Assembly (NCBI RefSeq): GCF_037042905.1
Contig: NC_087245.1
Location: 20,276,001-20,336,000, forward strand
From: Lytechinus pictus
Taxonomy: Eukaryota
Length of the DNA stretch: 60,000 bases
Direction of reading: 5' to 3'
Shown piece by piece: positions 11,113 to 60,000 of the stretch (its first letter is position 1; each line of letters opens with the position of its first letter). A program made the translations under genes and the position numbers. Below the pieces are notes generated by a model, which did not search any database, had not been told where the DNA came from, and worked only from the letters and a program-made list of their open reading frames with translations.

Positions 11113-11227
11113 TTAAAGCTTTTAGACCAAAGTCACCGAAGGAAAGACATTCGCTTCCGTTCCTAAGGAGCAAAAGTTTTAATAAATATGCATTTAGCAT
11201 TCGGATCAGCCCGGGCTGTTCAACCAG

Positions 11228-20164: not shown

Positions 20165-20224
20165 TATAGGCTTCTTAGATAACAATGACATAAATTTATC
20201 TGAGTATGAAAATGTATTACATCA

Positions 20225-22930: not shown

Positions 22931-23726
22931 TATGTGTTACCAACTCCCAACTGGGAGTTTTAGAATACCATTAAATTATTCATACATAAATAATTGTGAA
23001 ATACTTTGAAATTGAAAACTAATATCCTTGATATTTCTTTCTTTATTTGTTTTGTTTTATTTTTCTAGTTTGAGTTTAGGAGGGAACGTGCTTTTCTATG
23101 AATTCTTGATTGTTGGCGAGGTCATTTTAGGTTTGTTCATGGAGTGTGTCTTATCTTATGTAGAATCTCTAATGGTGGGGTAGTGCACTCAGGCAATTTA
23201 AACTACATTATTATTCCATTACGTTCCCCCGTGACAATGCGTCTTAAGAGGTGTGTTTTATTCATCATGGTCATTGTTTTATCAATTCTTGACCCAGTTT
23301 AGTGAATGGTCATTATTTAATAAGTAGCCATTGGAGAATACAGCTATAAAAGATGAACTTTTCGCCGAAACGTTTCCTTACCTTGTCAATAGATGCGTCT
23401 TATGAGAGGCTAAATAATGAGATGTTTTTTTTTGCAAAATTACACATTAACACATGAGAGCACGCAAGATACCCCACCCCTAACCCCCACCAAACAAACA
23501 AAACAAAGAGAATCAAGTAAAGAAGATTATATTATGTTTCCTTATTTTCTACTTCCCAAGAGACCACTTCCCATCCCAGCATAATAGTAAACAAAACGAA
23601 GAAAACTTCAGTAAACTTTAAATTCAAATTAGATTATTAACATTGGTATGATTTCTGATTTAATTTTCTTTTAGCTTGTCTTCAAAACACCCCTATACAT
23701 CATTGTAAACGCACCGCAAAGAACAG

Positions 23727-23806
23727 GTGCCCGTTTCATAAAGAGTTACAACTGTTGTAACTTTGCCATTATGGCAACTACCATGGTATCCTTGATTTTG
23801 ATCGCC
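23727..23806. mobile_element. Left part of a Harbinger-like MITE, interrupted by the tandem array
   Basis: CAG followed by GTGCCCGTTTCATAAAG is the same terminal motif as the 11228-11398 MITE. The sequence breaks off at TA-CAGGTG and no right arm is in the window. Confidence 0.65.
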
Positions 23807-23808
23807 TA

Positions 23809-24277
23809 CAGGTGTCACGCGCGTAAAACATTCCCCATAGACTTGTGTGTTAAGATGGCACTTTTGAAAAATTCATAAAAAATAAATGTGAAATTAGAGG
23901 GTGGAATGTTTACTACCAATGGATAGGATATATATCTGACATTCCAAATCTGACCAGGAAAGGGTACCGTAGCCAGCTCATTTTAAAAATAAATCGCCAT
24001 TTATGAAGATAACTATGAATCGATCGAATTCTTCAACTGAAACAGTAAAATAGCCCTAATTATTCCGCCAGTCAAAAAATAGTTCCAAGTCACTTATTTA
24101 TCTTCCCAATTTGGGCGAAGTAAGTTCAGTAGTTACCATTTCTAGAATCAGTGTTAGATTTTGAATCACATTCATACATTTTTGTCAATCAGCAATATCA
24201 AATTGACAAAAATTCGAATGGGTTGGGTCGAACGAATATCTTTAGCCCTCCTGATGTAATTAGGCTCGTGGAACCTA
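23809..24277. mobile_element. 469-bp TA-flanked non-autonomous TIR element (first copy; present in every array unit except one)
   Basis: Left end CAGGTGTCACGCGCGTAA matches the reverse complement of the right end, TAGGTTCCACGAGCCTAA, at 13/18. Internal inverted pair ATTCCAAATCTGAC / GTTAGATTTTGAAT. TA on both sides. Exactly these 469 bp are missing at 51456/51457. Confidence 0.8.
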
Positions 24278-24699
24278 TATTATATGACATATGTATTTTT
24301 TTTTTTTGAATAGCTACTTTGCTATTCTTTTATATCTGTACACTCACACTAGCACAAAGAAATGCATTGAAAATGCCTATTTTCTATGCAATGACCCATT
24401 TTAATGTGTTACCCATACATGTTATTTTCACTATATATGGATGTATACAAATTCTACCTGCATAGAGCCCAACAGTGAATGCAATGACAATATAGGTCCC
24501 TGTCAATTGTAATATAAAGGTGTATGTAAATTCTGTGTAGATATCAGGATACCAGAACTGCCCCAAACATATATACATGAGATTGGATGAGGAAACAATA
24601 AAAGAATGAGATACTACTTTATTATATTTGCATTTGACCTATTCAAAATCTTCCTAGGGCTGTTGCCTCTCAAATGTAAGAAGGATAATATATACATAA

Positions 24700-24703
<4 letters not shown>

Positions 24704-24730
<27 letters not shown>
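24704..24730. repeat. (GA)n microsatellite within each array unit (first copy)
   Basis: About 13 AG dinucleotides, repeated in all units. Confidence 0.95.
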
Positions 24731-24734
<4 letters not shown>

Positions 24735-26153
24735 AAGATAATTTTATAAATGACATGGTTTAATAAAGAGGGGGGGGGCTATACTAAGATTGCAGCACAC
24801 AGCAGCCCCCCCCCCCCTCCCTCCTTAGCTGAGCACTATTAGATACCTTACCTTACTCTGTGCCCTTTTCTAAATACCTTCTTGAAGGTACCACTCTAGT
24901 TCTCTTCAGTAAAGTTTTTAAAGTTCTATCTCCTCTCTACCTACCCCCTTCCTAAGAACAATTTTAACATGAGCAATTTCTAAAGGTCTTTCTTATGCTA
25001 AGTAGGTGATGTACACTAACACAAAACAATGATAAATCAGAACATAAAGAGGCCTTGACTCTATACATTGACCAATCTACATACATTCCTAGGCTACACA
25101 GACCTACTATAACTTTACCTGATGTAGCTCTGCTAGCCATTAAATCCATTTTTTTGCACCACTAGATGACTAAACATATTGATATCAGTGAGAAATTGTT
25201 TGCTACTGAAGAGTTTGGCCAGGTATTCCATCCACTACTAGCTAGATTTCTCATATTACTTACAGGTGTCACGCGCGTAAAACATTCCCCATAGACTTGT
25301 GTGTTAAGATGGCACTTTTGAAAAATTCATAAAAAATAAATGTGAAATTAGAGGGTGGAATGTTTACTACCAATGGATAGGATATATATCTGACATTCCA
25401 AATCTGACCAGGAAAGGGTACCGTAGCCAGCTCATTTTAAAAATAAATCGCCATTTATGAAGATAACTATGAATCGATCGAATTCTTCAACTGAAACAGT
25501 AAAATAGCCCTAATTATTCCGCCAGTCAAAAAATAGTTCCAAGTCACTTATTTATCTTCCCAATTTGGGCGAAGTAAGTTCAGTAGTTACCATTTCTAGA
25601 ATCAGTGTTAGATTTTGAATCACATTCATACATTTTTGTCAATCAGCAATATCAAATTGACAAAAATTCGAATGGGTTGGGTCGAACGAATATCTTTAGC
25701 CCTCCTGATGTAATTAGGCTCGTGGAACCTATATTATATGACATATGTATTTTTTTTTTTTGAATAGCTACTTTGCTATTCTTTTATATCTGTACACTCA
25801 CACTAGCACAAAGAAATGCATTGAAAATGCCTATTTTCTATGCAATGACCCATTTTAATGTGTTACCCATACATGTTATTTTCACTATATATGGATGTAT
25901 ACAAATTCTACCTGCATAGAGCCCAACAGTGAATGCAATGACAATATAGGTCCCTGTCAATTGTAATATAAAGGTGTATGTAAATTCTGTGTAGATATCA
26001 GGATACCAGAACTGCCCCAAACATATATACATGAGATTGGATGAGGAAACAATAAAAGAATGAGATACTACTTTATTATATTTGCATTTGACCTATTCAA
26101 AATCTTCCTAGGGCTGTTGCCTCTCAAATGTAAGAAGGATAATATATACATAA

Positions 26154-26188
<35 letters not shown>

Positions 26189-27607
26189 AAGATAATTTTA
26201 TAAATGACATGGTTTAATAAAGAGGGGGGGGGGCTATACTAAGATTGCAGCACACAGCAGCCCCCCCCCCCTCCCTCCTTAGCTGAGCACTATTAGATAC
26301 CTTACCTTACTCTGTGCCCTTTTCTAAATACCTTCTTGAAGGTACCACTCTAGTTCTCTTCAGTAAAGTTTTTAAAGTTCTATCTCCTCTCTACCTACCC
26401 CCTTCCTAAGAACAATTTTAACATGAGCAATTTCTAAAGGTCTTTCTTATGCTAAGTAGGTGATGTACACTAACACAAAACAATGATAAATCAGAACATA
26501 AAGAGGCCTTGACTCTATACATTGACCAATCTACATACATTCCTAGGCTACACAGACCTACTATAACTTTACCTGATGTAGCTCTGCTAGCCATTAAATC
26601 CATTTTTTTGCACCACTAGATGACTAAACATATTGATATCAGTGAGAAATTGTTTGCTACTGAAGAGTTTGGCCAGGTATTCCATCCACTACTAGCTAGA
26701 TTTCTCATATTACTTACAGGTGTCACGCGCGTAAAACATTCCCCATAGACTTGTGTGTTAAGATGGCACTTTTGAAAAATTCATAAAAAATAAATGTGAA
26801 ATTAGAGGGTGGAATGTTTACTACCAATGGATAGGATATATATCTGACATTCCAAATCTGACCAGGAAAGGGTACCGTAGCCAGCTCATTTTAAAAATAA
26901 ATCGCCATTTATGAAGATAACTATGAATCGATCGAATTCTTCAACTGAAACAGTAAAATAGCCCTAATTATTCCGCCAGTCAAAAAATAGTTCCAAGTCA
27001 CTTATTTATCTTCCCAATTTGGGCGAAGTAAGTTCAGTAGTTACCATTTCTAGAATCAGTGTTAGATTTTGAATCACATTCATACATTTTTGTCAATCAG
27101 CAATATCAAATTGACAAAAATTCGAATGGGTTGGGTCGAACGAATATCTTTAGCCCTCCTGATGTAATTAGGCTCGTGGAACCTATATTATATGACATAT
27201 GTATTTTTTTTTTTTGAATAGCTACTTTGCTATTCTTTTATATCTGTACACTCACACTAGCACAAAGAAATGCATTGAAAATGCCTATTTTCTATGCAAT
27301 GACCCATTTTAATGTGTTACCCTTACATGTTATTTTCACTATATATGGATGTATACAAATTCTACCTGCATAGATCCCAACAGTGAATGCAATGACAATA
27401 TAGGTCCCTGTCAATTGTAATATAAAGGTGTATGTAAATTCTGTGTAGATATCAGGATACCAGAACTGCCCCAAACATATATACATGAGATTGGATGAGG
27501 AAACAATAAAAGAATGAGATACTACTTTATTATATTTGCATTTGACCTATTCAAAATCTTCCTAGGGCTGTTGCCTCTCAAATGTAAGAAGGATAATATA
27601 TACATAA

Positions 27608-27642
<35 letters not shown>

Positions 27643-29059
27643 AAGATAATTTTATAAATGACATGGTTTAATAAAGAGGGGGGGGGGCTATACTAAGATT
27701 GCAGCACACAGCAGCCCCCCCCCTCCCTCCTTAGCTGAGCACTATTAGATACCTTACCTTACTCTGTGCCCTTTTCTAAATACCTTCTTGAAGGTACCAC
27801 TCTAGTTCTCTTCAGTAAAGTTTTTAAAGTTCTATCTCCTCTCTACCTATCCCCTTCCTAAGAACAATTTTAACATGAGCAATTTCTAAAGGTCTTTCTT
27901 ATGCTAAGTAGGTGATGTACACTAACACAAAACAATGATAAATCAGAACATAAAGAGGCCTTGACTCTATACATTGACCAATCTACATACATTCCTAGGC
28001 TACACAGACCTACTATAACTTTACCTGATGTAGCTCTGCTAGCCATTAAATCCATTTTTTTGCACCACTAGATGACTAAACATATTGATATCAGTGAGAA
28101 ATTGTTTGCTACTGAAGAGTTTGGCCAGGTATTCCATCCACTACTAGCTAGATTTCTCATATTACTTACAGGTGTCACGCGCGTAAAACATTCCCCATAG
28201 ACTTGTGTGTTAAGATGGCACTTTTGAAAAATTCATAAAAAATAAATGTGAAATTAGAGGGTGGAATGTTTACTACCAATGGATAGGATATATATCTGAC
28301 ATTCCAAATCTGACCAGGAAAGGGTACCGTAGCCAGCTCATTTTAAAAATAAATCGCCATTTATGAAGATAACTATGAATCGATCGAATTCTTCAACTGA
28401 AACAGTAAAATAGCCCTAATTATTCCGCCAGTCAAAAAATAGTTCCAAGTCACTTATTTATCTTCCCAATTTGGGCGAAGTAAGTTCAGTAGTTACCATT
28501 TCTAGAATCAGTGTTAGATTTTGAATCACATTCATACATTTTTGTCAATCAGCAATATCAAATTGACAAAAATTCGAATGGGTTGGGTCGAACGAATATC
28601 TTTAGCCCTCCTGATGTAATTAGGCTCGTGGAACCTATATTATATGACATATGTATTTTTTTTTTTTGAATAGCTACTTTGCTATTCTTTTATATCTGTA
28701 CACTCACACTAGCACAAAGAAATGCATTGAAAATGCCTATTTTCTATGCAATGACCCATTTTAATGTGTTACCCATACATGTTATTTTCACTATATATGG
28801 ATGTATACAAATTCTACCTGCATAGAGCCCAACAGTGAATGCAATGACAATATAGGTCCCTGTCAATTGTAATATAAAGGTGTATGTAAATTCTGTGTAG
28901 ATATCAGGATACCAGAACTGCCCCAAACATATATACATGAGATTGGATGAGGAAACAATAAAAGAATGAGATACTACTTTATTATATTTGCATTTGACCT
29001 ATTCAAAATCTTCCTAGGGCTGTTGCCTCTCAAATGTAAGAAGGATAATATATACATAA

Positions 29060-29094
<35 letters not shown>

Positions 29095-30512
29095 AAGATA
29101 ATTTTATAAATGACATGGTTTAATAAAGAGGGGGGGGGGGCTATACTAAGATTGCAGCACACAGCAGCCCCCCCCCTCCCTCCTTAGCTGAGCACTATTA
29201 GATACCTTACCTTACTCTGTGCCCTTTTCTAAATACCTTCTTGAAGGTACCACTCTAGTTCTCTTCAGTAAAGTTTTTAAAGTTCTATCTCCTCTCTACC
29301 TACCCCCTTCCTAAGAACAATTTTAACATGAGCAATTTCTAAAGGTCTTTCTTATGCTAAGTAGGTGATGTACACTAACACAAAACAATGATAAATCAGA
29401 ACATAAAGAGGCCTTGACTCTATACATTGACCAATCTACATACATTCCTAGGCTACACAGACCTACTATAACTTTACCTGATGTAGCTCTGCTAGCCATT
29501 AAATCCATTTTTTTGCACCACTAGATGACTAAACATATTGATATCAGTGAGAAATTGTTTGCTACTGAAGAGTTTGGCCAGGTATTCCATCCACTACTAG
29601 CTAGATTTCTCATATTACTTACAGGTGTCACGCGCGTAAAACATTCCCCATAGACTTGTGTGTTAAGATGGCACTTTTGAAAAATTCATAAAAAATAAAT
29701 GTGAAATTAGAGGGTGGAATGTTTACTACCAATGGATAGGATATATATCTGACATTCCAAATCTGACCAGGAAAGGGTACCGTAGCCAGCTCATTTTAAA
29801 AATAAATCGCCATTTATGAAGATAACTATGAATCGATCGAATTCTTCAACTGAAACAGTAAAATAGCCCTAATTATTCCGCCAGTCAAAAAATAGTTCCA
29901 AGTCACTTATTTATCTTCCCAATTTGGGCGAAGTAAGTTCAGTAGTTACCATTTCTAGAATCAGTGTTAGATTTTGAATCACATTCATACATTTTTGTCA
30001 ATCAGCAATATCAAATTGACAAAAATTCGAATGGGTTGGGTCGAACGAATATCTTTAGCCCTCCTGATGTAATTAGGCTCGTGGAACCTATATTATATGA
30101 CATATGTATTTTTTTTTTTTGAATAGCTACTTTGCTATTCTTTTATATCTGTACACTCACACTAGCACAAAGAAATGCATTGAAAATGCCTATTTTCTAT
30201 GCAATGACCCATTTTAATGTGTTACCCATACATGTTATTTTCACTATATATGGATGTATACAAATTCTACCTGCATAGAGCCCAACAGTGAATGCAATGA
30301 CAATATAGGTCCCTGTCAATTGTAATATAAAGGTGTATGTAAATTCTGTGTAGATATCAGGATACCAGAACTGCCCCAAACATATATACATGAGATTGGA
30401 TGAGGAAACAATAAAAGAATGAGATACTACTTTATTATATTTGCATTTGACCTATTCAAAATCTTCCTAGGGCTGTTGCCTCTCAAATGTAAGAAGGATA
30501 ATATATACATAA

Positions 30513-30547
<35 letters not shown>

Positions 30548-31964
30548 AAGATAATTTTATAAATGACATGGTTTAATAAAGAGGGGGGGGGCTATACTAA
30601 GATTGCAGCACACAGCAGCCCCCCCCCCTCCCTCCTTAGCTGAGCACTATTAGATACCTTACCTTACTCTGTGCCCTTTTCTAAATACCTTCTTGAAGGT
30701 ACCACTCTAGTTCTCTTCAGTAAAGTTTTTAAAGTTCTATCTCCTCTCTACCTACCCCCTTCCTAAGAACAATTTTAACATGAGCAATTTCTAAAGGTCT
30801 TTCTTATGCTAAGTAGGTGATGTACACTAACACAAAACAATGATAAATCAGAACATAAAGAGGCCTTGACTCTATACATTGACCAATCTACATACATTCC
30901 TAGGCTACACAGACCTACTATAACTTTACCTGATGTAGCTCTGCTAGCCATTAAATCCATTTTTTTGCACCACTAGATGACTAAACATATTGATATCAGT
31001 GAGAAATTGTTTGCTACTGAAGAGTTTGGCCAGGTATTCCATCCACTACTAGCTAGATTTCTCATATTACTTACAGGTGTCACGCGCGTAAAACATTCCC
31101 CATAGACTTGTGTGTTAAGATGGCACTTTTGAAAAATTCATAAAAAATAAATGTGAAATTAGAGGGTGGAATGTTTACTACCAATGGATAGGATATATAT
31201 CTGACATTCCAAATCTGACCAGGAAAGGGTACCGTAGCCAGCTCATTTTAAAAATAAATCGCCATTTATGAAGATAACTATGAATCGATCGAATTCTTCA
31301 ACTGAAACAGTAAAATAGCCCTAATTATTCCGCCAGTCAAAAAATAGTTCCAAGTCACTTATTTATCTTCCCAATTTGGGCGAAGTAAGTTCAGTAGTTA
31401 CCATTTCTAGAATCAGTGTTAGATTTTGAATCACATTCATACATTTTTGTCAATCAGCAATATCAAATTGACAAAAATTCGAATGGGTTGGGTCGAACGA
31501 ATATCTTTAGCCCTCCTGATGTAATTAGGCTCGTGGAACCTATATTATATGACATATGTATTTTTTTTTTTTGAATAGCTACTTTGCTATTCTTTTATAT
31601 CTGTACACTCACACTAGCACAAAGAAATGCATTGAAAATGCCTATTTTCTATGCAATGACCCATTTTAATGTGTTACCCTTACATGTTATTTTCACTATA
31701 TATGGATGTATACAAATTCTACCTGCATAGAGCCCAACAGTGAATGCAATGACAATATAGGTCCCTGTCAATTGTAATATAAAGGTGTATGTAAATTCTG
31801 TGTAGATATCAGGATACCAGAACTGCCCCAAACATATATACATGAGATTGGATGAGGAAACAATAAAAGAATGAGATACTACTTTATTATATTTGCATTT
31901 GACCTATTCAAAATCTTCCTAGGGCTGTTGCCTCTCAAATGTAAGAAGGATAATATATACATAA

Positions 31965-31999
<35 letters not shown>

Positions 32000-33420
32000 A
32001 AGATAATTTTATAAATGACATGGTTTAATAAAGAGGGGGGGGGGGCTATACTAAGATTGCAGCACACAGCAGCCCCCCCCCCCCTCCCTCCTTAGCTGAG
32101 CACTATTAGATACCTTACCTTACTCTGTGCCCTTTTCTAAATACCTTCTTGAAGGTACCACTCTAGTTCTCTTCAGTAAAGTTTTTAAAGTTCTATCTCC
32201 TCTCTACCTATCCCCTTCCTAAGAACAATTTTAACATGAGCAATTTCTAAAGGTCTTTCTTATGCTAAGTAGGTGATGTACACTAACACAAAACAATGAT
32301 AAATCAGAACATAAAGAGGCCTTGACTCTATACATTGACCAATCTACATACATTCCTAGGCTACACAGACCTACTATAACTTTACCTGATGTAGCTCTGC
32401 TAGCCATTAAATCCATTTTTTTGCACCACTAGATGACTAAACATATTGATATCAGTGAGAAATTGTTTGCTACTGAAGAGTTTGGCCAGGTATTCCATCC
32501 ACTACTAGCTAGATTTCTCATATTACTTACAGGTGTCACGCGCGTAAAACATTCCCCATAGACTTGTGTGTTAAGATGGCACTTTTGAAAAATTCATAAA
32601 AAATAAATGTGAAATTAGAGGGTGGAATGTTTACTACCAATGGATAGGATATATATCTGACATTCCAAATCTGACCAGGAAAGGGTACCGTAGCCAGCTC
32701 ATTTTAAAAATAAATCGCCATTTATGAAGATAACTATGAATCGATCGAATTCTTCAACTGAAACAGTAAAATAGCCCTAATTATTCCGCCAGTCAAAAAA
32801 TAGTTCCAAGTCACTTATTTATCTTCCCAATTTGGGCGAAGTAAGTTCAGTAGTTACCATTTCTAGAATCAGTGTTAGATTTTGAATCACATTCATACAT
32901 TTTTGTCAATCAGCAATATCAAATTGACAAAAATTCGAATGGGTTGGGTCGAACGAATATCTTTAGCCCTCCTGATGTAATTAGGCTCGTGGAACCTATA
33001 TTATATGACATATGTATTTTTTTTTTTTGAATAGCTACTTTGCTATTCTTTTATATCTGTACACTCACACTAGCACAAAGAAATGCATTGAAAATGCCTA
33101 TTTTCTATGCAATGACCCATTTTAATGTGTTACCCATACATGTTATTTTCACTATATATGGATGTATACAAATTCTACCTGCATAGAGCCCAACAGTGAA
33201 TGCAATGACAATATAGGTCCCTGTCAATTGTAATATAAAGGTGTATGTAAATTCTGTGTAGATATCAGGATACCAGAACTGCCCCAAACATATATACATG
33301 AGATTGGATGAGGAAACAATAAAAGAATGAGATACTACTTTATTATATTTGCATTTGACCTATTCAAAATCTTCCTAGGGCTGTTGCCTCTCAAATGTAA
33401 GAAGGATAATATATACATAA

Positions 33421-33455
<35 letters not shown>

Positions 33456-34875
33456 AAGATAATTTTATAAATGACATGGTTTAATAAAGAGGGGGGGGGG
33501 GGGCTATACTAAGATTGCAGCACACAGCAGCCCCCCCCCTCCCTCCTTAGCTGAGCACTATTAGATACCTTACCTTACTCTGTGCCCTTTTCTAAATACC
33601 TTCTTGAAGGTACCACTCTAGTTCTCTTCAGTAAAGTTTTTAAAGTTCTATCTCCTCTCTACCTACCCCCTTCCTAAGAACAATTTTAACATGAGCAATT
33701 TCTAAAGGTCTTTCTTATGCTAAGTAGGTGATGTACACTAACACAAAACAATGATAAATCAGAACATAAAGAGGCCTTGACTCTATACATTGACCAATCT
33801 ACATACATTCCTAGGCTACACAGACCTACTATAACTTTACCTGATGTAGCTCTGCTAGCCATTAAATCCATTTTTTTGCACCACTAGATGACTAAACATA
33901 TTGATATCAGTGAGAAATTGTTTGCTACTGAAGAGTTTGGCCAGGTATTCCATCCACTACTAGCTAGATTTCTCATATTACTTACAGGTGTCACGCGCGT
34001 AAAACATTCCCCATAGACTTGTGTGTTAAGATGGCACTTTTGAAAAATTCATAAAAAATAAATGTGAAATTAGAGGGTGGAATGTTTACTACCAATGGAT
34101 AGGATATATATCTGACATTCCAAATCTGACCAGGAAAGGGTACCGTAGCCAGCTCATTTTAAAAATAAATCGCCATTTATGAAGATAACTATGAATCGAT
34201 CGAATTCTTCAACTGAAACAGTAAAATAGCCCTAATTATTCCGCCAGTCAAAAAATAGTTCCAAGTCACTTATTTATCTTCCCAATTTGGGCGAAGTAAG
34301 TTCAGTAGTTACCATTTCTAGAATCAGTGTTAGATTTTGAATCATATTCATACATTTTTGTCAATCAGCAATATCAAATTGACAAAAATTCGAATGGGTT
34401 GGGTCGAACGAATATCTTTAGCCCTCCTGATGTAATTAGGCTCGTGGAACCTATATTATATGACATATGTATTTTTTTTTTTTGAATAGCTACTTTGCTA
34501 TTCTTTTATATCTGTACACTCACACTAGCACAAAGAAATGCATTGAAAATGCCTATTTTCTATGCAATGACCCATTTTAATGTGTTACCCATACATGTTA
34601 TTTTCACTATATATGGATGTATACAAATTCTACCTGCATAGAGCCCAACAGTGAATGCAATGACAATATAGGTCCCTGTCAATTGTAATATAAAGGTGTA
34701 TGTAAATTCTGTGTAGATATCAGGATACCAGAACTGCCCCAAACATATATACATGAGATTGGATGAGGAAACAATAAAAGAATGAGATACTACTTTATTA
34801 TATTTGCATTTGACCTATTCAAAATCTTCCTAGGGCTGTTGCCTCTCAAATGTAAGAAGGATAATATATACATAA

Positions 34876-34910
<35 letters not shown>

Positions 34911-36333
34911 AAGATAATTTTATAAATGACATGGTTTAATAAAGAGGGGGGGGGGGGGGGCTATACTAAGATTGCAGCACACAGCAGCCCCCCCCCCTCC
35001 CTCCTTAGCTGAGCACTATTAGATACCTTACCTTACTCTGTGCCCTTTTCTAAATACCTTCTTGAAGGTACCACTCTAGTTCTCTTCAGTAAAGTTTTTA
35101 AAGTTCTATCTCCTCTCTACCTACCCCCTTCCTAAGAACAATTTTAACATGAGCAATTTCTAAAGGTCTTTCTTATGCTAAGTAGGTGATGTACACTAAC
35201 ACAAAACAATGATAAATCAGAACATAAAGAGGCCTTGACTCTATACATTGACCAATCTACATACATTCCTAGGCTACACAGACCTACTATAACTTTACCT
35301 GATGTAGCTCTGCTAGCCATTAAATCCATTTTTTTGCACCACTAGATGACTAAACATATTGATATCAGTGAGAAATTGTTTGCTACTGAAGAGTTTGGCC
35401 AGGTATTCCATCCACTACTAGCTAGATTTCTCATATTACTTACAGGTGTCACGCGCGTAAAACATTCCCCATAGACTTGTGTGTTAAGATGGCACTTTTG
35501 AAAAATTCATAAAAAATAAATGTGAAATTAGAGGGTGGAATGTTTACTACCAATGGATAGGATATATATCTGACATTCCAAATCTGACCAGGAAAGGGTA
35601 CCGTAGCCAGCTCATTTTAAAAATAAATCGCCATTTATGAAGATAACTATGAATCGATCGAATTCTTCAACTGAAACAGTAAAATAGCCCTAATTATTCC
35701 GCCAGTCAAAAAATAGTTCCAAGTCACTTATTTATCTTCCCAATTTGGGCGAAGTAAGTTCAGTAGTTACCATTTCTAGAATCAGTGTTAGATTTTGAAT
35801 CACATTCATACATTTTTGTCAATCAGCAATATCAAATTGACAAAAATTCGAATGGGTTGGGTCGAACGAATATCTTTAGCCCTCCTGATGTAATTAGGCT
35901 CGTGGAACCTATATTATATGACATATGTATTTTTTTTTTTTGAATAGCTACTTTGCTATTCTTTTATATCTGTACACTCACACTAGCACAAAGAAATGCA
36001 TTGAAAATGCCTATTTTCTATGCAATGACCCATTTTAATGTGTTACCCATACATGTTATTTTCACTATATATGGATGTATACAAATTCTACCTGCATAGA
36101 GCCCAACAGTGAATGCAATGACAATATAGGTCCCTGTCAATTGTAATATAAAGGTGTATGTAAATTCTGTGTAGATATCAGGATACCAGAACTGCCCCAA
36201 ACATATATACATGAGATTGGATGAGGAAACAATAAAAGAATGAGATACTACTTTATTATATTTGCATTTGACCTATTCAAAATCTTCCTAGGGCTGTTGC
36301 CTCTCAAATGTAAGAAGGATAATATATACATAA

Positions 36334-36368
<35 letters not shown>

Positions 36369-37788: not shown

Positions 37789-37823
<35 letters not shown>

Positions 37824-39245: not shown

Positions 39246-39280
<35 letters not shown>

Positions 39281-40703: not shown

Positions 40704-40738
<35 letters not shown>

Positions 40739-42158: not shown

Positions 42159-42193
<35 letters not shown>

Positions 42194-43614: not shown

Positions 43615-43649
<35 letters not shown>

Positions 43650-45070: not shown

Positions 45071-45105
<35 letters not shown>

Positions 45106-46523: not shown

Positions 46524-46558
<35 letters not shown>

Positions 46559-47982
46559 AAGATAATTTTATAAATGACATGGTTTAATAAAGAGGGGGGG
46601 GGGGGGGCTATACTAAGATTGCAGCACACAGCAGCCCCCCCCCCCCTCCCTCCTTAGCTGAGCACTATTAGATACCTTACCTTACTCTGTGCCCTTTTCT
46701 AAATACCTTCTTGAAGGTACCACTCTAGTTCTCTTCAGTAAAGTTTTTAAAGTTCTATCTCCTCTCTACCTACCCCCTTCCTAAGAACAATTTTAACATG
46801 AGCAATTTCTAAAGGTCTTTCTTATGCTAAGTAGGTGATGTACACTAACACAAAACAATGATAAATCAGAACATAAAGAGGCCTTGACTCTATACATTGA
46901 CCAATCTACATACATTCCTAGGCTACACAGACCTACTATAACTTTACCTGATGTAGCTCTGCTAGCCATTAAATCCATTTTTTTGCACCACTAGATGACT
47001 AAACATATTGATATCAGTGAGAAATTGTTTGCTACTGAAGAGTTTGGCCAGGTATTCCATCCACTACTAGCTAGATTTCTCATATTACTTACAGGTGTCA
47101 CGCGCGTAAAACATTCCCCATAGACTTGTGTGTTAAGATGGCACTTTTGAAAAATTCATAAAAAATAAATGTGAAATTAGAGGGTGGAATGTTTACTACC
47201 AATGGATAGGATATATATCTGACATTCCAAATCTGACCAGGAAAGGGTACCGTAGCCAGCTCATTTTAAAAATAAATCGCCATTTATGAAGATAACTATG
47301 AATCGATCGAATTCTTCAACTGAAACAGTAAAATAGCCCTAATTATTCCGCCAGTCAAAAAATAGTTCCAAGTCACTTATTTATCTTCCCAATTTGGGCG
47401 AAGTAAGTTCAGTAGTTACCATTTCTAGAATCAGTGTTAGATTTTGAATCACATTCATACATTTTTGTCAATCAGCAATATCAAATTGACAAAAATTCGA
47501 ATGGGTTGGGTCGAACGAATATCTTTAGCCCTCCTGATGTAATTAGGCTCGTGGAACCTATATTATATGACATATGTATTTTTTTTTTTTGAATAGCTAC
47601 TTTGCTATTCTTTTATATCTGTACACTCACACTAGCACAAAGAAATGCATTGAAAATGCCTATTTTCTATGCAATGACCCATTTTAATGTGTTACCCTTA
47701 CATGTTATTTTCACTATATATGGATGTATACAAATTCTACCTGCATAGAGCCCAACAGTGAATGCAATGACAATATAGGTCCCTGTCAATTGTAATATAA
47801 AGGTGTATGTAAATTCTGTGTAGATATCAGGATACCAGAACTGCCCCAAACATATATACATGAGATTGGATGAGGAAACAATAAAAGAATGAGATACTAC
47901 TTTATTATATTTGCATTTGACCTATTCAAAATCTTCCTAGGGCTGTTGCCTCTCAAATGTAAGAAGGATAATATATACATAA

Positions 47983-48021
<39 letters not shown>

Positions 48022-49442
48022 AAGATAATTTTATAAATGACATGGTTTAATAAAGAGGGGGGGGGGGCTATACTAAGATTGCAGCACACAGCAGCCCCCC
48101 CCCCCCTCCCTCCTTAGCTGAGCACTATTAGATACCTTACCTTACTCTGTGCCCTTTTCTAAATACCTTCTTGAAGGTACCACTCTAGTTCTCTTCAGTA
48201 AAGTTTTTAAAGTTCTATCTCCTCTCTACCTATCCCCTTCCTAAGAACAATTTTAACATGAGCAATTTCTAAAGGTCTTTCTTATGCTAAGTAGGTGATG
48301 TACACTAACACAAAACAATGATAAATCAGAACATAAAGAGGCCTTGACTCTATACATTGACCAATCTACATACATTCCTAGGCTACACAGACCTACTATA
48401 ACTTTACCTGATGTAGCTCTGCTAGCCATTAAATCCATTTTTTTGCACCACTAGATGACTAAACATATTGATATCAGTGAGAAATTGTTTGCTACTGAAG
48501 AGTTTGGCCAGGTATTCCATCCACTACTAGCTAGATTTCTCATATTACTTACAGGTGTCACGCGCGTAAAACATTCCCCATAGACTTGTGTGTTAAGATG
48601 GCACTTTTGAAAAATTCATAAAAAATAAATGTGAAATTAGAGGGTGGAATGTTTACTACCAATGGATAGGATATATATCTGACATTCCAAATCTGACCAG
48701 GAAAGGGTACCGTAGCCAGCTCATTTTAAAAATAAATCGCCATTTATGAAGATAACTATGAATCGATCGAATTCTTCAACTGAAACAGTAAAATAGCCCT
48801 AATTATTCCGCCAGTCAAAAAATAGTTCCAAGTCACTTATTTATCTTCCCAATTTGGGCGAAGTAAGTTCAGTAGTTACCATTTCTAGAATCAGTGTTAG
48901 ATTTTGAATCACATTCATACATTTTTGTCAATCAGCAATATCAAATTGACAAAAATTCGAATGGGTTGGGTCGAACGAATATCTTTAGCCCTCCTGATGT
49001 AATTAGGCTCGTGGAACCTATATTATATGACATATGTATTTTTTTTTTTTGAATAGCTACTTTGCTATTCTTTTATATCTGTACACTCACACTAGCACAA
49101 AGAAATGCATTGAAAATGCCTATTTTCTATGCAATGACCCATTTTAATGTGTTACCCATACATGTTATTTTCACTATATATGGATGTATACAAATTCTAC
49201 CTGCATAGAGCCCAACAGTGAATGCAATGACAATATAGGTCCCTGTCAATTGTAATATAAAGGTGTATGTAAATTCTGTGTAGATATCAGGATACCAGAA
49301 CTGCCCCAAACATATATACATGAGATTGGATGAGGAAACAATAAAAGAATGAGATACTACTTTATTATATTTGCATTTGACCTATTCAAAATCTTCCTAG
49401 GGCTGTTGCCTCTCAAATGTAAGAAGGATAATATATACATAA

Positions 49443-49477
<35 letters not shown>

Positions 49478-50893
49478 AAGATAATTTTATAAATGACATG
49501 GTTTAATAAAGAGGGGGGGGCTATACTAAGATTGCAGCACACAGCAGCCCCCCCCCCTCCCTCCTTAGCTGAGCACTATTAGATACCTTACCTTACTCTG
49601 TGCCCTTTTCTAAATACCTTCTTGAAGGTACCACTCTAGTTCTCTTCAGTAAAGTTTTTAAAGTTCTATCTCCTCTCTACCTACCCCCTTCCTAAGAACA
49701 ATTTTAACATGAGCAATTTCTAAAGGTCTTTCTTATGCTAAGTAGGTGATGTACACTAACACAAAACAATGATAAATCAGAACATAAAGAGGCCTTGACT
49801 CTATACATTGACCAATCTACATACATTCCTAGGCTACACAGACCTACTATAACTTTACCTGATGTAGCTCTGCTAGCCATTAAATCCATTTTTTTGCACC
49901 ACTAGATGACTAAACATATTGATATCAGTGAGAAATTGTTTGCTACTGAAGAGTTTGGCCAGGTATTCCATCCACTACTAGCTAGATTTCTCATATTACT
50001 TACAGGTGTCACGCGCGTAAAACATTCCCCATAGACTTGTGTGTTAAGATGGCACTTTTGAAAAATTCATAAAAAATAAATGTGAAATTAGAGGGTGGAA
50101 TGTTTACTACCAATGGATAGGATATATATCTGACATTCCAAATCTGACCAGGAAAGGGTACCGTAGCCAGCTCATTTTAAAAATAAATCGCCATTTATGA
50201 AGATAACTATGAATCGATCGAATTCTTCAACTGAAACAGTAAAATAGCCCTAATTATTCCGCCAGTCAAAAAATAGTTCCAAGTCACTTATTTATCTTCC
50301 CAATTTGGGCGAAGTAAGTTCAGTAGTTACCATTTCTAGAATCAGTGTTAGATTTTGAATCACATTCATACATTTTTGTCAATCAGCAATATCAAATTGA
50401 CAAAAATTCGAATGGGTTGGGTCGAACGAATATCTTTAGCCCTCCTGATGTAATTAGGCTCGTGGAACCTATATTATATGACATATGTATTTTTTTTTTT
50501 TGAATAGCTACTTTGCTATTCTTTTATATCTGTACACTCACACTAGCACAAAGAAATGCATTGAAAATGCCTATTTTCTATGCAATGACCCATTTTAATG
50601 TGTTACCCATACATGTTATTTTCACTATATATGGATGTATACAAATTCTACCTGCATAGAGCCCAACAGTGAATGCAATGACAATATAGGTCCCTGTCAA
50701 TTGTAATATAAAGGTGTATGTAAATTCTGTGTAGATATCAGGATACCAGAACTGCCCCAAACATATATACATGAGATTGGATGAGGAAACAATAAAAGAA
50801 TGAGATACTACTTTATTATATTTGCATTTGACCTATTCAAAATCTTCCTAGGGCTGTTGCCTCTCAAATGTAAGAAGGATAATATATACATAA

Positions 50894-50924
<31 letters not shown>

Positions 50925-51878
50925 AAGAAAGATAATTTTATAAATGACATGGTTTAATAAAGAGGGGGGGGGGCTATACTAAGATTGCAGCACACAGCAG
51001 CCCCCCCCCCCTCCCTCCTTAGCTGAGCACTATTAGATACCTTACCTTACTCTGTGCCCTTTTCTAAATACCTTCTTGAAGGTACCACTCTAGTTCTCTT
51101 CAGTAAAGTTTTTAAAGTTCTATCTCCTCTCTACCTACCCCCTTCCTAAGAACAATTTTAACATGAGCAATTTCTAAAGGTCTTTCTTATGCTAAGTAGG
51201 TGATGTACACTAACACAAAACAATGATAAATCAGAACATAAAGAGGCCTTGACTCTATACATTGACCAATCTACATACATTCCTAGGCTACACAGACCTA
51301 CTATAACTTTACCTGATGTAGCTCTGCTAGCCATTAAATCCATTTTTTTGCACCACTAGATGACTAAACATATTGATATCAGTGAGAAATTGTTTGCTAC
51401 TGAAGAGTTTGGCCAGGTATTCCATCCACTACTAGCTAGATTTCTCATATTACTTATATTATATGACATATGTATTTTTTTTTTTTGAATAGCTACTTTG
51501 CTATTCTTTTATATCTGTACACTCACACTAGCACAAAGAAATGCATTGAAAATGCCTATTTTCTATGCAATGACCCATTTTAATGTGTTACCCTTACATG
51601 TTATTTTCACTATATATGGATGTATACAAATTCTACCTGCATAGAGCCCAACAGTGAATGCAATGACAATATAGGTCCCTGTCAATTGTAATATAAAGGT
51701 GTATGTAAATTCTGTGTAGATATCAGGATACCAGAACTGCCCCAAACATATATACATGAGATTGGATGAGGAAACAATAAAAGAATGAGATACTACTTTA
51801 TTATATTTGCATTTGACCTATTCAAAATCTTCCTAGGGCTGTTGCCTCTCAAATGTAAGAAGGATAATATATACATAA

Positions 51879-51913
<35 letters not shown>

Positions 51914-53333
51914 AAGATAATTTTATAAATGACATGGTTTAATAAAGAGGGGGGGGGGGGGCTATACTAAGATTGCAGCACACAGCAGCCCCCCCCCTCC
52001 CTCCTTAGCTGAGCACTATTAGATACCTTACCTTACTCTGTGCCCTTTTCTAAATACCTTCTTGAAGGTACCACTCTAGTTCTCTTCAGTAAAGTTTTTA
52101 AAGTTCTATCTCCTCTCTACCTATCCCCTTCCTAAGAACAATTTTAACATGAGCAATTTCTAAAGGTCTTTCTTATGCTAAGTAGGTGATGTACACTAAC
52201 ACAAAACAATGATAAATCAGAACATAAAGAGGCCTTGACTCTATACATTGACCAATCTACATACATTCCTAGGCTACACAGACCTACTATAACTTTACCT
52301 GATGTAGCTCTGCTAGCTATTAAATCCATTTTTTTGCACCACTAGATGACTAAACATATTGATATCAGTGAGAAATTGTTTGCTACTGAAGAGTTTGGCC
52401 AGGTATTCCATCCACTACTAGCTAGATTTCTCATATTACTTACAGGTGTCACGCGCGTAAAACATTCCCCATAGACTTGTGTGTTAAGATGGCACTTTTG
52501 AAAAATTCATAAAAAATAAATGTGAAATTAGAGGGTGGAATGTTTACTACCAATGGATAGGATATATATCTGACATTCCAAATCTGACCAGGAAAGGGTA
52601 CCGTAGCCAGCTCATTTTAAAAATAAATCGCCATTTATGAAGATAACTATGAATCGATCGAATTCTTCAACTGAAACAGTAAAATAGCCCTAATTATTCC
52701 GCCAGTCAAAAAATAGTTCCAAGTCACTTATTTATCTTCCCAATTTGGGCGAAGTAAGTTCAGTAGTTACCATTTCTAGAATCAGTGTTAGATTTTGAAT
52801 CACATTCATACATTTTTGTCAATCAGCAATATCAAATTGACAAAAATTCGAATGGGTTGGGTCGAACGAATATCTTTAGCCCTCCTGATGTAATTAGGCT
52901 CGTGGAACCTATATTATATGACATATGTATTTTTTTTTTTTGAATAGCTACTTTGCTATTCTTTTATATCTGTACACTCACACTAGCACAAAGAAATGCA
53001 TTGAAAATGCCTATTTTCTATGCAATGACCCATTTTAATGTGTTACCCATACATGTTATTTTCACTATATATGGATGTATACAAATTCTACCTGCATAGA
53101 GCCCAACAGTGAATGCAATGACAATATAGGTCCCTGTCAATTGTAATATAAAGGTGTATGTAAATTCTGTGTAGATATCAGGATACCAGAACTGCCCCAA
53201 ACATATATACATGAGATTGGATGAGGAAACAATAAAAGAATGAGATACTACTTTATTATATTTGCATTTGACCTATTCAAAATCTTCCTAGGGCTGTTGC
53301 CTCTCAAATGTAAGAAGGATAATATATACATAA

Positions 53334-53368
<35 letters not shown>

Positions 53369-54785
53369 AAGATAATTTTATAAATGACATGGTTTAATAA
53401 AGAGGGGGGGGGGCTATACTAAGATTGCAGCACACAGCAGCCCCCCCCCTCCCTCCTTAGCTGAGCACTATTAGATACCTTACCTTACTCTGTGCCCTTT
53501 TCTAAATACCTTCTTGAAGGTACCACTCTAGTTCTCTTCAGTAAAGTTTTTAAAGTTCTATCTCCTCTCTACCTACCCCCTTCCTAAGAACAATTTTAAC
53601 ATGAGCAATTTCTAAAGGTCTTTCTTATGCTAAGTAGGTGATGTACACTAACACAAAACAATGATAAATCAGAACATAAAGAGGCCTTGACTCTATACAT
53701 TGACCAATCTACATACATTCCTAGGCTACACAGACCTACTATAACTTTACCTGATGTAGCTCTGCTAGCCATTAAATCCATTTTTTTGCACCACTAGATG
53801 ACTAAACATATTGATATCAGTGAGAAATTGTTTGCTACTGAAGAGTTTGGCCAGGTATTCCATCCACTACTAGCTAGATTTCTCATATTACTTACAGGTG
53901 TCACGCGCGTAAAACATTCCCCATAGACTTGTGTGTTAAGATGGCACTTTTGAAAAATTCATAAAAAATAAATGTGAAATTAGAGGGTGGAATGTTTACT
54001 ACCAATGGATAGGATATATATCTGACATTCCAAATCTGACCAGGAAAGGGTACCGTAGCCAGCTCATTTTAAAAATAAATCGCCATTTATGAAGATAACT
54101 ATGAATCGATCGAATTCTTCAACTGAAACAGTAAAATAGCCCTAATTATTCCGCCAGTCAAAAAATAGTTCCAAGTCACTTATTTATCTTCCCAATTTGG
54201 GCGAAGTAAGTTCAGTAGTTACCATTTCTAGAATCAGTGTTAGATTTTGAATCACATTCATACATTTTTGTCAATCAGCAATATCAAATTGACAAAAATT
54301 CGAATGGGTTGGGTCGAACGAATATCTTTAGCCCTCCTGATGTAATTAGGCTCGTGGAACCTATATTATATGACATATGTATTTTTTTTTTTTGAATAGC
54401 TACTTTGCTATTCTTTTATATCTGTACACTCACACTAGCACAAAGAAATGCATTGAAAATGCCTATTTTCTATGCAATGACCCATTTTAATGTGTTACCC
54501 ATACATGTTATTTTCACTATATATGGATGTATACAAATTCTACCTGCATAGAGCCCAACAGTGAATGCAATGACAATATAGGTCCCTGTCAATTGTAATA
54601 TAAAGGTGTATGTAAATTCTGTGTAGATATCAGGATACCAGAACTGCCCCAAACATATATACATGAGATTGGATGAGGAAACAATAAAAGAATGAGATAC
54701 TACTTTATTATATTTGCATTTGACCTATTCAAAATCTTCCTAGGGCTGTTGCCTCTCAAATGTAAGAAGGATAATATATACATAA

Positions 54786-54820
<35 letters not shown>

Positions 54821-56241
54821 AAGATAATTTTATAAATGACATGGTTTAATAAAGAGGGGGGGGGGGCTATACTAAGATTGCAGCACACAGCAGCCCCCCC
54901 CCCCCTCCCTCCTTAGCTGAGCACTATTAGATACCTTACCTTACTCTGTGCCCTTTTCTAAATACCTTCTTGAAGGTACCACTCTAGTTCTCTTCAGTAA
55001 AGTTTTTAAAGTTCTATCTCCTCTCTACCTACCCCCTTCCTAAGAACAATTTTAACATGAGCAATTTCTAAAGGTCTTTCTTATGCTAAGTAGGTGATGT
55101 ACACTAACACAAAACAATGATAAATCAGAACATAAAGAGGCCTTGACTCTATACATTGACCAATCTACATACATTCCTAGGCTACACAGACCTACTATAA
55201 CTTTACCTGATGTAGCTCTGCTAGCCATTAAATCCATTTTTTTGCACCACTAGATGACTAAACATATTGATATCAGTGAGAAATTGTTTGCTACTGAAGA
55301 GTTTGGCCAGGTATTCCATCCACTACTAGCTAGATTTCTCATATTACTTACAGGTGTCACGCGCGTAAAACATTCCCCATAGACTTGTGTGTTAAGATGG
55401 CACTTTTGAAAAATTCATAAAAAATAAATGTGAAATTAGAGGGTGGAATGTTTACTACCAATGGATAGGATATATATCTGACATTCCAAATCTGACCAGG
55501 AAAGGGTACCGTAGCCAGCTCATTTTAAAAATAAATCGCCATTTATGAAGATAACTATGAATCGATCGAATTCTTCAACTGAAACAGTAAAATAGCCCTA
55601 ATTATTCCGCCAGTCAAAAAATAGTTCCAAGTCACTTATTTATCTTCCCAATTTGGGCGAAGTAAGTTCAGTAGTTACCATTTCTAGAATCAGTGTTAGA
55701 TTTTGAATCACATTCATACATTTTTGTCAATCAGCAATATCAAATTGACAAAAATTCGAATGGGTTGGGTCGAACGAATATCTTTAGCCCTCCTGATGTA
55801 ATTAGGCTCGTGGAACCTATATTATATGACATATGTATTTTTTTTTTTTGAATAGCTACTTTGCTATTCTTTTATATCTGTACACTCACACTAGCACAAA
55901 GAAATGCATTGAAAATGCCTATTTTCTATGCAATGACCCATTTTAATGTGTTACCCATACATGTTATTTTCACTATATATGGATGTATACAAATTCTACC
56001 TGCATAGAGCCCAACAGTGAATGCAATGACAATATAGGTCCCTGTCAATTGTAATATAAAGGTGTATGTAAATTCTGTGTAGATATCAGGATACCAGAAC
56101 TGCCCCAAACATATATACATGAGATTGGATGAGGAAACAATAAAAGAATGAGATACTACTTTATTATATTTGCATTTGACCTATTCAAAATCTTCCTAGG
56201 GCTGTTGCCTCTCAAATGTAAGAAGGATAATATATACATAA

Positions 56242-56276
<35 letters not shown>

Positions 56277-57693
56277 AAGATAATTTTATAAATGACATGG
56301 TTTAATAAAGAGGGGGGGGGCTATACTAAGATTGCAGCACACAGCAGCCCCCCCCCCTCCCTCCTTAGCTGAGCACTATTAGATACCTTACCTTACTCTG
56401 TGCCCTTTTCTAAATACCTTCTTGAAGGTACCACTCTAGTTCTCTTCAGTAAAGTTTTTAAAGTTCTATCTCCTCTCTACCTACCCCCTTCCTAAGAACA
56501 ATTTTAACATGAGCAATTTCTAAAGGTCTTTCTTATGCTAAGTAGGTGATGTACACTAACACAAAACAATGATAAATCAGAACATAAAGAGGCCTTGACT
56601 CTATACATTGACCAATCTACATACATTCCTAGGCTACACAGACCTACTATAACTTTACCTGATGTAGCTCTGCTAGCCATTAAATCCATTTTTTTGCACC
56701 ACTAGATGACTAAACATATTGATATCAGTGAGAAATTGTTTGCTACTGAAGAGTTTGGCCAGGTATTCCATCCACTACTAGCTAGATTTCTCATATTACT
56801 TACAGGTGTCACGCGCGTAAAACATTCCCCATAGACTTGTGTGTTAAGATGGCACTTTTGAAAAATTCATAAAAAATAAATGTGAAATTAGAGGGTGGAA
56901 TGTTTACTACCAATGGATAGGATATATATCTGACATTCCAAATCTGACCAGGAAAGGGTACCGTAGCCAGCTCATTTTAAAAATAAATCGCCATTTATGA
57001 AGATAACTATGAATCGATCGAATTCTTCAACTGAAACAGTAAAATAGCCCTAATTATTCCGCCAGTCAAAAAATAGTTCCAAGTCACTTATTTATCTTCC
57101 CAATTTGGGCGAAGTAAGTTCAGTAGTTACCATTTCTAGAATCAGTGTTAGATTTTGAATCACATTCATACATTTTTGTCAATCAGCAATATCAAATTGA
57201 CAAAAATTCGAATGGGTTGGGTCGAACGAATATCTTTAGCCCTCCTGATGTAATTAGGCTCGTGGAACCTATATTATATGACATATGTATTTTTTTTTTT
57301 TGAATAGCTACTTTGCTATTCTTTTATATCTGTACACTCACACTAGCACAAAGAAATGCATTGAAAATGCCTATTTTCTATGCAATGACCCATTTTAATG
57401 TGTTACCCATACATGTTATTTTCACTATATATGGATGTATACAAATTCTACCTGCATAGAGCCCAACAGTGAATGCAATGACAATATAGGTCCCTGTCAA
57501 TTGTAATATAAAGGTGTATGTAAATTCTGTGTAGATATCAGGATACCAGAACTGCCCCAAACATATATACATGAGATTGGATGAGGAAACAATAAAAGAA
57601 TGAGATACTACTTTATTATATTTGCATTTGACCTATTCAAAATCTTCCTAGGGCTGTTGCCTCTCAAATGTAAGAAGGATAATATATACATAA

Positions 57694-57728
<35 letters not shown>

Positions 57729-59151
57729 AAGATAATTTTATAAATGACATGGTTTAATAAAGAGGGGGGGGGGGGCTATACTAAGATTGCAGCACACAGC
57801 AGCCCCCCCCCCCCCTCCCTCCTTAGCTGAGCACTATTAGATACCTTACCTTACTCTGTGCCCTTTTCTAAATACCTTCTTGAAGGTACCACTCTAGTTC
57901 TCTTCAGTAAAGTTTTTAAAGTTCTATCTCCTCTCTACCTACCCCCTTCCTAAGAACAATTTTAACATGAGCAATTTCTAAAGGTCTTTCTTATGCTAAG
58001 TAGGTGATGTACACTAACACAAAACAATGATAAATCAGAACATAAAGAGGCCTTGACTCTATACATTGACCAATCTACATACATTCCTAGGCTACACAGA
58101 CCTACTATAACTTTACCTGATGTAGCTCTGCTAGCCATTAAATCCATTTTTTTGCACCACTAGATGACTAAACATATTGATATCAGTGAGAAATTGTTTG
58201 CTACTGAAGAGTTTGGCCAGGTATTCCATCCACTACTAGCTAGATTTCTCATATTACTTACAGGTGTCACGCGCGTAAAACATTCCCCATAGACTTGTGT
58301 GTTAAGATGGCACTTTTGAAAAATTCATAAAAAATAAATGTGAAATTAGAGGGTGGAATGTTTACTACCAATGGATAGGATATATATCTGACATTCCAAA
58401 TCTGACCAGGAAAGGGTACCGTAGCCAGCTCATTTTAAAAATAAATCGCCATTTATGAAGATAACTATGAATCGATCGAATTCTTCAACTGAAACAGTAA
58501 AATAGCCCTAATTATTCCGCCAGTCAAAAAATAGTTCCAAGTCACTTATTTATCTTCCCAATTTGGGCGAAGTAAGTTCAGTAGTTACCATTTCTAGAAT
58601 CAGTGTTAGATTTTGAATCACATTCATACATTTTTGTCAATCAGCAATATCAAATTGACAAAAATTCGAATGGGTTGGGTCGAACGAATATCTTTAGCCC
58701 TCCTGATGTAATTAGGCTCGTGGAACCTATATTATATGACATATGTATTTTTTTTTTTTGAATAGCTACTTTGCTATTCTTTTATATCTGTACACTCACA
58801 CTAGCACAAAGAAATGCATTGAAAATGCCTATTTTCTATGCAATGACCCATTTTAATGTGTTACCCATACATGTTATTTTCACTATATATGGATGTATAC
58901 AAATTCTACCTGCATAGAGCCCAACAGTGAATGCAATGACAATATAGGTCCCTGTCAATTGTAATATAAAGGTGTATGTAAATTCTGTGTAGATATCAGG
59001 ATACCAGAACTGCCCCAAACATATATACATGAGATTGGATGAGGAAACAATAAAAGAATGAGATACTACTTTATTATATTTGCATTTGACCTATTCAAAA
59101 TCTTCCTAGGGCTGTTGCCTCTCAAATGTAAGAAGGATAATATATACATAA

Positions 59152-59186
<35 letters not shown>

Positions 59187-60000
59187 AAGATAATTTTATA
59201 AATGACATGGTTTAATAAAGAGGGGGGGGGCTATACTAAGATTGCAGCACACAGCAGCCCCCCCCCCTCCCTCCTTAGCTGAGCACTATTAGATACCTTA
59301 CCTTACTCTGTGCCCTTTTCTAAATACCTTCTTGAAGGTACCACTCTAGTTCTCTTCAGTAAAGTTTTTAAAGTTCTATCTCCTCTCTACCTACCCCCTT
59401 CCTAAGAACAATTTTAACATGAGCAATTTCTAAAGGTCTTTCTTATGCTAAGTAGGTGATGTACACTAACACAAAACAATGATAAATCAGAACATAAAGA
59501 GGCCTTGACTCTATACATTGACCAATCTACATACATTCCTAGGCTACACAGACCTACTATAACTTTACCTGATGTAGCTCTGCTAGCCATTAAATCCATT
59601 TTTTTGCACCACTAGATGACTAAACATATTGATATCAGTGAGAAATTGTTTGCTACTGAAGAGTTTGGCCAGGTATTCCATCCACTACTAGCTAGATTTC
59701 TCATATTACTTACAGGTGTCACGCGCGTAAAACATTCCCCATAGACTTGTGTGTTAAGATGGCACTTTTGAAAAATTCATAAAAAATAAATGTGAAATTA
59801 GAGGGTGGAATGTTTACTACCAATGGATAGGATATATATCTGACATTCCAAATCTGACCAGGAAAGGGTACCGTAGCCAGCTCATTTTAAAAATAAATCG
59901 CCATTTATGAAGATAACTATGAATCGATCGAATTCTTCAACTGAAACAGTAAAATAGCCCTAATTATTCCGCCAGTCAAAAAATAGTTCCAAGTCACTTA

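Follow-up and report, generated by a model that had tools for sequence, protein, structure and literature searches.

Transposable elements of the KolobokP group (Kojima and Bao 2022; PMC9587614) consist of a pair of long terminal direct repeats (LTDRs) of ~450 or 660 bp that enclose an internal region (INT), with RR..YY ends and short, imperfect terminal inverted repeats (TIRs), and they duplicate 3-5 bp of the target without strong sequence preference. Solo LTDRs, multimers, and INT-INT junctions that retain one 4-mer have already been published for this group. Among its members is KolobokP-N2_LyPi, a non-autonomous family of the painted urchin listed in Table S1 with a length of 1,904 bp, LTDRs of 465/464 bp, a target site duplication of 4 bp, and 313 LTDR and 156 INT copies. 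The window analyzed here, a stretch of 60,000 nucleotides of the Lytechinus pictus genome (G000:C1:20276001-20336000), holds most of a long tandem array whose unit is almost certainly this family, judging from the sequence. With a probability of roughly 0.68, the array is a KolobokP-N2_LyPi multimer that occupies one 4-bp site within a miniature inverted-repeat transposable element (MITE; hereafter the host MITE) and that grew in place from a single founder by repeated unequal exchange.

The array begins abruptly at window position 23811, without fading in, as the original prediction made for this DNA had noted (self-BLAST of the repeat begins at 23807), and it overshoots the window by 1,637 bases, ending at G000:C1:20337637 exactly with the end of an LTDR. 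Its 37,827 bp comprise 26 LTDRs and 26 spacers (INTs), with an LTDR at each outer end, a period of ~1,455 bp, and an identity between units of 99.6-99.9% by self-BLAST (Table 1). All 26 LTDRs are 465 bp long and have GG..CC ends, with 9 of the first 12 bases pairing in the TIRs, while the spacers range from 986 to 995 bp and the monomer measures 1,919 bp. The predicted extent of more than 36 kb is real (37.8 kb), although the unit lacking its LTDR at 51455-51458 had been missed. The longest stop-to-stop frame in the array unit is 84 amino acids, no protein-family search of the frames having been made.

Table 1. Features of the array and its insertion site, in window coordinates unless a genome position is given.
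Feature	Position	Strand	Remarks
Left arm of the palindromic, high-copy host MITE (~170 bp if whole)	23724..23806	+	95% match to intact copy L047
Left copy of the 4-bp target site, TACA	23807..23810	+	right copy TACT at G000:C1:20337638-20337641
First LTDR, 465 bp, GG..CC, imperfect TIR	23811..24275	+	by eye, unlike the published LTDR of KolobokP-N2_LyPi at 3 positions
First INT, 989 bp, start TATA, end TACA	24276..25264	+	by-eye match to KolobokP-N2_LyPi-I
Multimer, 26 LTDRs + 26 INTs, 37,827 bp	23811..60000, on to G000:C1:20337637	+	
INT-INT junction, one LTDR absent, lone 4-mer TATA remaining	51455..51458	+	
25th LTDR, cut by the window end	59715..60000	+	followed by one INT and the final LTDR in L031

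The assignment to KolobokP-N2_LyPi is based on a comparison by eye, not a computed alignment, in which 462 of the 465 LTDR positions are the same as in the published family and the INT agrees in its start, body, and end, with small indels. The two share the 465-bp LTDR, an INT with TATA at its start and TACA at its end, and the 4-bp duplication; they differ in the private substitutions of the array, in the small INT indels, and in its state as a multimer of 26 LTDRs. The general features of KolobokP are found as well: LTDRs of the ~450-bp class (465 bp), RR..YY termini, short imperfect TIRs, and a 4-bp duplication family-wide, together with the LTDR-INT-LTDR layout both in the array itself and in monomers at other loci. 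Solo LTDRs, multimers, and INT-INT junctions are all present in the genome, as is an autonomous relative in which a DDE transposase and a downstream, opposite-strand His-Me nuclease lie between related LTDRs (L133, L130/L122). Where 313 LTDR and 156 INT copies were published, the genome counts obtained here are 1,006 for exact LTDR starts and 678 for INT-LTDR junctions. The window INT is 68-73% similar to the ends of autonomous INTs, as would fit an old derivative that arose by internal deletion.

The boundaries of the mobile unit were defined from loci across the genome, where an exact 26-mer from the LTDR start gives 1,006 matches (control, 0). All 34 loci among the first 100 matches listed were taken, unselected by flank, and one without a right end was dropped. 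A perfect 4-bp duplication of variable sequence surrounds the 465-bp GG..CC unit at 28 of the remaining 33 loci (shuffled mean 1.2, maximum 7), and the right flank starts with TA at only 4. The original prediction had described a 469-bp TIR element inserted at TA; a MITE of the TA-site (Tc1/mariner) type is ruled out by these counts, the apparent TA site arising because the spacer ends with TACA and starts with TATA, and a Helitron rolling-circle origin was dropped given the 4-bp duplication and the TIRs. It had also been supposed that the spacer is cargo. That a pair of 469-bp TA-site MITEs captured unrelated cargo or satellite DNA and brought it here is scarcely credible: the composite layout and the TA at both ends of the array would agree with it, but the 465-bp repeat is flanked by 4-bp duplications of many sequences, and the spacer, far from being foreign, is the published INT of the family, which occurs with the LTDR at 45 other fetched loci and is related to the autonomous INT ends.

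The site of insertion lies in a MITE for which 1,318 candidates were obtained and 40 scored, full copies among them. Its left arm aligns in all 19 other fetched copies, with the continuation seen in 18, and most intact copies read GATTTTGATTGGC-TGCT-GAGCCCTGTTG, followed by the right arm. At the array, the left side reads GATTTTGATCGCC-TACA and the far side TACT-GAGCCCTGTTG, that is, 15 further bases of the host MITE, followed by unrelated DNA. Given that the host MITE resumes past the array, the insertion point is clean, and the earlier view of a single insertion whose limits are element ends, laid out as an element-spacer-element composite and nested in another MITE, holds in the form of an LTDR-INT array with LTDR ends at both outer limits inside a palindromic MITE. 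For the far end, a final element, the target bases, and then the missing right arm of the host MITE had been foreseen, and the absence of this arm was to count against the prediction. The exact element end is there, followed by TACT-GAGCCCTGTTG, but no right arm was found in the 8.4 kb beyond the array (blastn, word 7); the insertion point is clean nonetheless. The host MITE, which had been called 'Harbinger-like', may be of that kind. No empty allele was recovered: none of the 24 sequencing runs listed contains half of the words of the site, and among short contigs from 7 sequencing runs none bridges the insertion site or spans the array. A 194-bp contig (run X7) matches the right flank from the exact LTDR boundary (L031:1637-1751, 9 differences), a weak hint drawn from its aligned letters. 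About 250 bases past the array lies a high-copy element of 1.2 kb whose inverted ends are long and which has TTAA on either side (L031:1888-3072).

How the array reached its size can be read from variants within and outside it. LTDR position 44 is G in all 26 array copies and in none of the 149 full LTDRs compared from elsewhere (79 fetched stretches), the array variants at INT positions 178, 227, and 834 are found in 0 of 110 other INTs, and the closest INT outside the array, among the best 40 of 1,247 spacer candidates, is 96.8% identical. Such private variants, fixed across the units, point to one founder. In addition, three substitutions recur in scattered units that are not neighbors (7 of 26 units at INT column 134, 6 of 26 at INT column 634, and 4 of 26 at LTDR position 359), a pattern that calls for exchange on several occasions and not for a single act of copying. 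A monomer or short multimer would have been inserted by a Kolobok DDE transposase supplied in trans, after which misaligned sister-chromatid exchange or break repair would have added LTDR-INT units. The His-Me nuclease that autonomous relatives encode may have set off the exchange, as proposed in a published model (PMC9587614). At a later time, the transposase may have excised an internal LTDR along with a single adjoining 4-mer, leaving the junction at 51455. The original prediction, which allowed for expansion in place or arrival as a multimer, is supported on this point.

The second of these routes, in which the array arrived largely pre-formed after the transposase excised a long multimer from a donor array, cutting at two LTDR ends far apart, and inserted it at this site, appears rather unlikely. 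It would account for the intact LTDR ends at both outer limits, for the high likeness of all units, and for the left flank, the internal 4-mer TACA being expected of an end from an array interior. Nevertheless, no donor with the private variants is found among the 149 LTDRs, the 110 INTs, and the best 40 of 1,247 spacer candidates, the sampled loci are mostly solos, monomers, and short multimers, with more than 5 LTDRs at only 2 of 34, and transposition generally declines as element length rises. It is also very improbable that a short real insertion was inflated in copy number by the assembly. Contigs from the sequencing runs examined are too short to span the array, and several unplaced contigs hold arrays of this kind wherever they were examined; the units, however, hold distinct shared substitutions and one structural variant, and both flanks join the host MITE cleanly.

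It should be noted that several points weigh against growth in place from a single founder. The duplication of the array is itself imperfect (TACA/TACT) and discordant duplications exist at 5 of 33 loci, and the TACA at the left flank could mean that the founder came from the interior of another array, perhaps in multimeric form from the outset. The comparisons cover the best 40 of 1,247 spacer candidates and 149 of ~1,006 LTDRs, and a donor array could be unsampled or sit on another haplotype. As for the enzymes, L133, whose LTDR comes closest among the autonomous copies, has its transposase in three frames, and the LTDR of the intact sister family is only 79% alike, with different TIRs. Finally, the copy number is that of the assembly.

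Genome-wide, 678 LTDR starts are preceded by an INT end, which amounts to about two thirds of LTDR starts (678 vs 1,006, obtained with two slightly different patterns). An array on C2, one of the 28 loci with a perfect duplication, contains 39 LTDRs in 64.8 kb bounded by TCAT/TCAT (G000:C2:46168233-46233072), and another on C17 extends over ~55 kb bounded by ATAA/ATAA (C17:19231319-19286400), with a nested 770-bp insertion copied into several units. This 770-bp element, seen in L169-L171 and L196, has CCC..GGG-type inverted ends, lies at an INT-INT junction, and may be piggyBac-like. More of these larger arrays of the family are present on contigs C131, C136, C281, C303, C313, C341, C347, C351, C365, and C367; what the unplaced contigs contain may be additional pieces of the C2 and C17 arrays, or haplotypes of them, and all of these arrays display higher-order periods of LTDR-bearing and LTDR-less units. 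In L194 (C14:26.43-26.46 Mb), INT runs without intervening LTDRs form a satellite of the internal region alone.

The multimers published for KolobokP, of the forms (LTDR-INT)n-LTDR and LTDR-(INT)n-LTDR (PMC9587614, Tables 2-3, Fig. S2-S5), resemble these arrays in that LTDRs are shared between units, the target duplication stands at the extreme ends, and INT-INT junctions keep one 4-mer; the longest in the part of supplement file 2 considered has 6 LTDRs, compared with 26 and 39 here. Both the family and the multimer arrangement have thus been in print since 2022, so that the route for satellite DNA proposed as new in the original prediction is not, and the present array is an unusually long example. 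Its size, the LTDR-LTDR junctions, and the asymmetric target duplications may be new, the latter two being absent from the main text of that paper, which counted only insertions with recognizable duplications. Further afield, the Pacific oyster has CgiSat13 and CgiSat16 (PMC8268682, Table 1), Kolobok-annotated tandem repeats with 2,414-bp monomers that were scored as satellite DNA; they belong to a different species and are likened here by their Kolobok annotation, not as confirmed KolobokP multimers. What the arrays add is material for the question left open in PMC9587614 of how KolobokP multimers form: arrays of 26-39 LTDRs coexist with near-identical arrays of intact autonomous elements, and the junction types leave marks in the sequence by which models of crossover, of circles, and of block transposition can be told apart.

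INT-INT junctions with one 4-mer number 99 in the genome (83 TATA, 11 TACA, and 5 TAAA), a count for which the search pattern forces a single 4-mer and in which many are amplified copies of one event, and junctions retaining both 4-mers are also present (L167, L193). At these same loci (C161, C254), the INT end is separated from the next LTDR by TGTA, which is TACA in reverse complement, a palindromic footprint as from hairpin opening. LTDR-LTDR junctions in which 4 or 5 bp separate the two repeats occur 14 times on 3 contigs; LTDR-TAAA-LTDR and LTDR-TTGTA-LTDR are seen in L169-L172 and L193 (C17, C136, C254), like the circle junction predicted for KolobokP. These junctions bear on model b of PMC9587614, by which extrachromosomal LTDR-INT circles would have built the array through rolling-circle copying or one-by-one re-entry. 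In the sister arrays they resemble the circle junction expected under this model, and the INT-4bp-INT junction is their reciprocal, but there is no LTDR-LTDR junction within the array itself, a single rolling-circle burst would not yield several variants shared in differing unit patterns, and the same junctions are made by end-to-end exchange between chromatids or by insertion adjacent to an end. A circle origin is accordingly considered unlikely.

The duplications that are not symmetric deserve separate consideration. The duplication of the array matches at 3 of 4 bases (TACA/TACT), and its left 4-mer is the one that stands ahead of every internal LTDR. Among the 5 discordant loci of the unselected 33, the three that are young and INT-bearing (this array, L039, and L040) have the INT-end 4-mer as their left flank, and the remaining two are older solos with one mismatch each. 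A further set of 40 loci was picked for flanks starting with TA and, being biased by that selection, was kept out of significance testing; after 21 without two clear outer ends were dropped, 12 are concordant and 7 discordant, each of the 7 with an INT-type 4-mer on one side. More discordant cases are L035 and L095. For piggyBac, asymmetric duplications at non-canonical sites consist of the donor 4-mer on one side and the target 4-mer on the other (PMC8717057, citing Li et al. 2013); piggyBac is TTAA-specific and of a different superfamily, which makes the comparison with Kolobok an analogy only, and most KolobokP-N2 sites are symmetric. The asymmetric duplications would fit such carry-over of the donor flank and also conversion from an internal junction, and the rarity of discordance argues against general carry-over.

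By the same analogy, a tentative and somewhat doubtful proposal is that arrays of KolobokP, besides being products, also serve as launch pads, with the transposase excising LTDR-bounded pieces from array interiors with a flanking 4-mer attached, in a piggyBac-like manner. If true, this reaction would explain TACA/TACT, the INT-INT scars with a single 4-mer, and the LTDR-4bp-LTDR junctions, the last as reintegrated circles, and a cycle of insertion, amplification, and relaunch would have built satellites of 38-65 kb and long arrays of intact units with transposase and homing nuclease in one genome.

Autonomous relatives were sought with the PF05551 profile, which gives 106 matches in the genome, and 20 stretches around some of these were fetched. 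The element L133 measures 4,957 bp and has LTDRs 92% identical to the window LTDR, being the sole copy above 91% among the best 40 of 96 candidates. Its PF20700 transposase is spread across three frames, and a His-Me nuclease (PF05551) lies downstream on the opposite strand. The His-Me stretch of L133 is ~3 residues off the published alignment row of the autonomous KolobokP-1_LyPi (4,984 bp) by eye; the latter encodes proteins, whereas the window unit encodes none and the L133 transposase is broken. Intact frames of 696 amino acids (transposase) and 146 amino acids (nuclease) are found in L130 and L122, which belong to a sister family with 79% LTDR identity and 86% transposase identity over the main stretch; the L130 transposase frame includes D, CCHC, D, C/DxxH, zinc-finger, and E motifs. 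The LTDR of this intact family is only 79% alike and its TIRs differ, so that its transposase is no more than a candidate for the enzyme that mobilizes KolobokP-N2. The sister family forms tandem 4,461-bp units on C8, bounded by CGCA/CGCA (G000:C8:21257284-21299717, L121-L124), and on eight unplaced contigs (C109, C157, C174, C200, C214, C219, C273, and C361), L130 included among its arrays, with units up to 100% identical. Its LTDR start is unlike all four LyPi LTDRs in the supplement of PMC9587614.

Two more autonomous KolobokP-like families carry PF20700 frames of 723 and 692 amino acids and direct repeats of ~470 bp (G000:C5:35.934-35.970 Mb, L127 and L128; L135; L138, L129, L132, L136, and L137), and one of them forms an array of 8 units with a 4,348-bp period.

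Elsewhere in the window, an open frame of 831 amino acids occupies 1455-3947 on the minus strand, its start presumably resembling an endonuclease/reverse-transcriptase protein of long interspersed nuclear elements. Blocks of a 24-bp minisatellite lie near it in both orientations (7-548, 860-1129, and 3946-4280). Further inverted-repeat elements are located at 9456-10452, 18906-20168, 10663-11121, and 11223-11403, comprising two with ends that start TACAGTGCGTAT and two palindromic MITE-like stretches.

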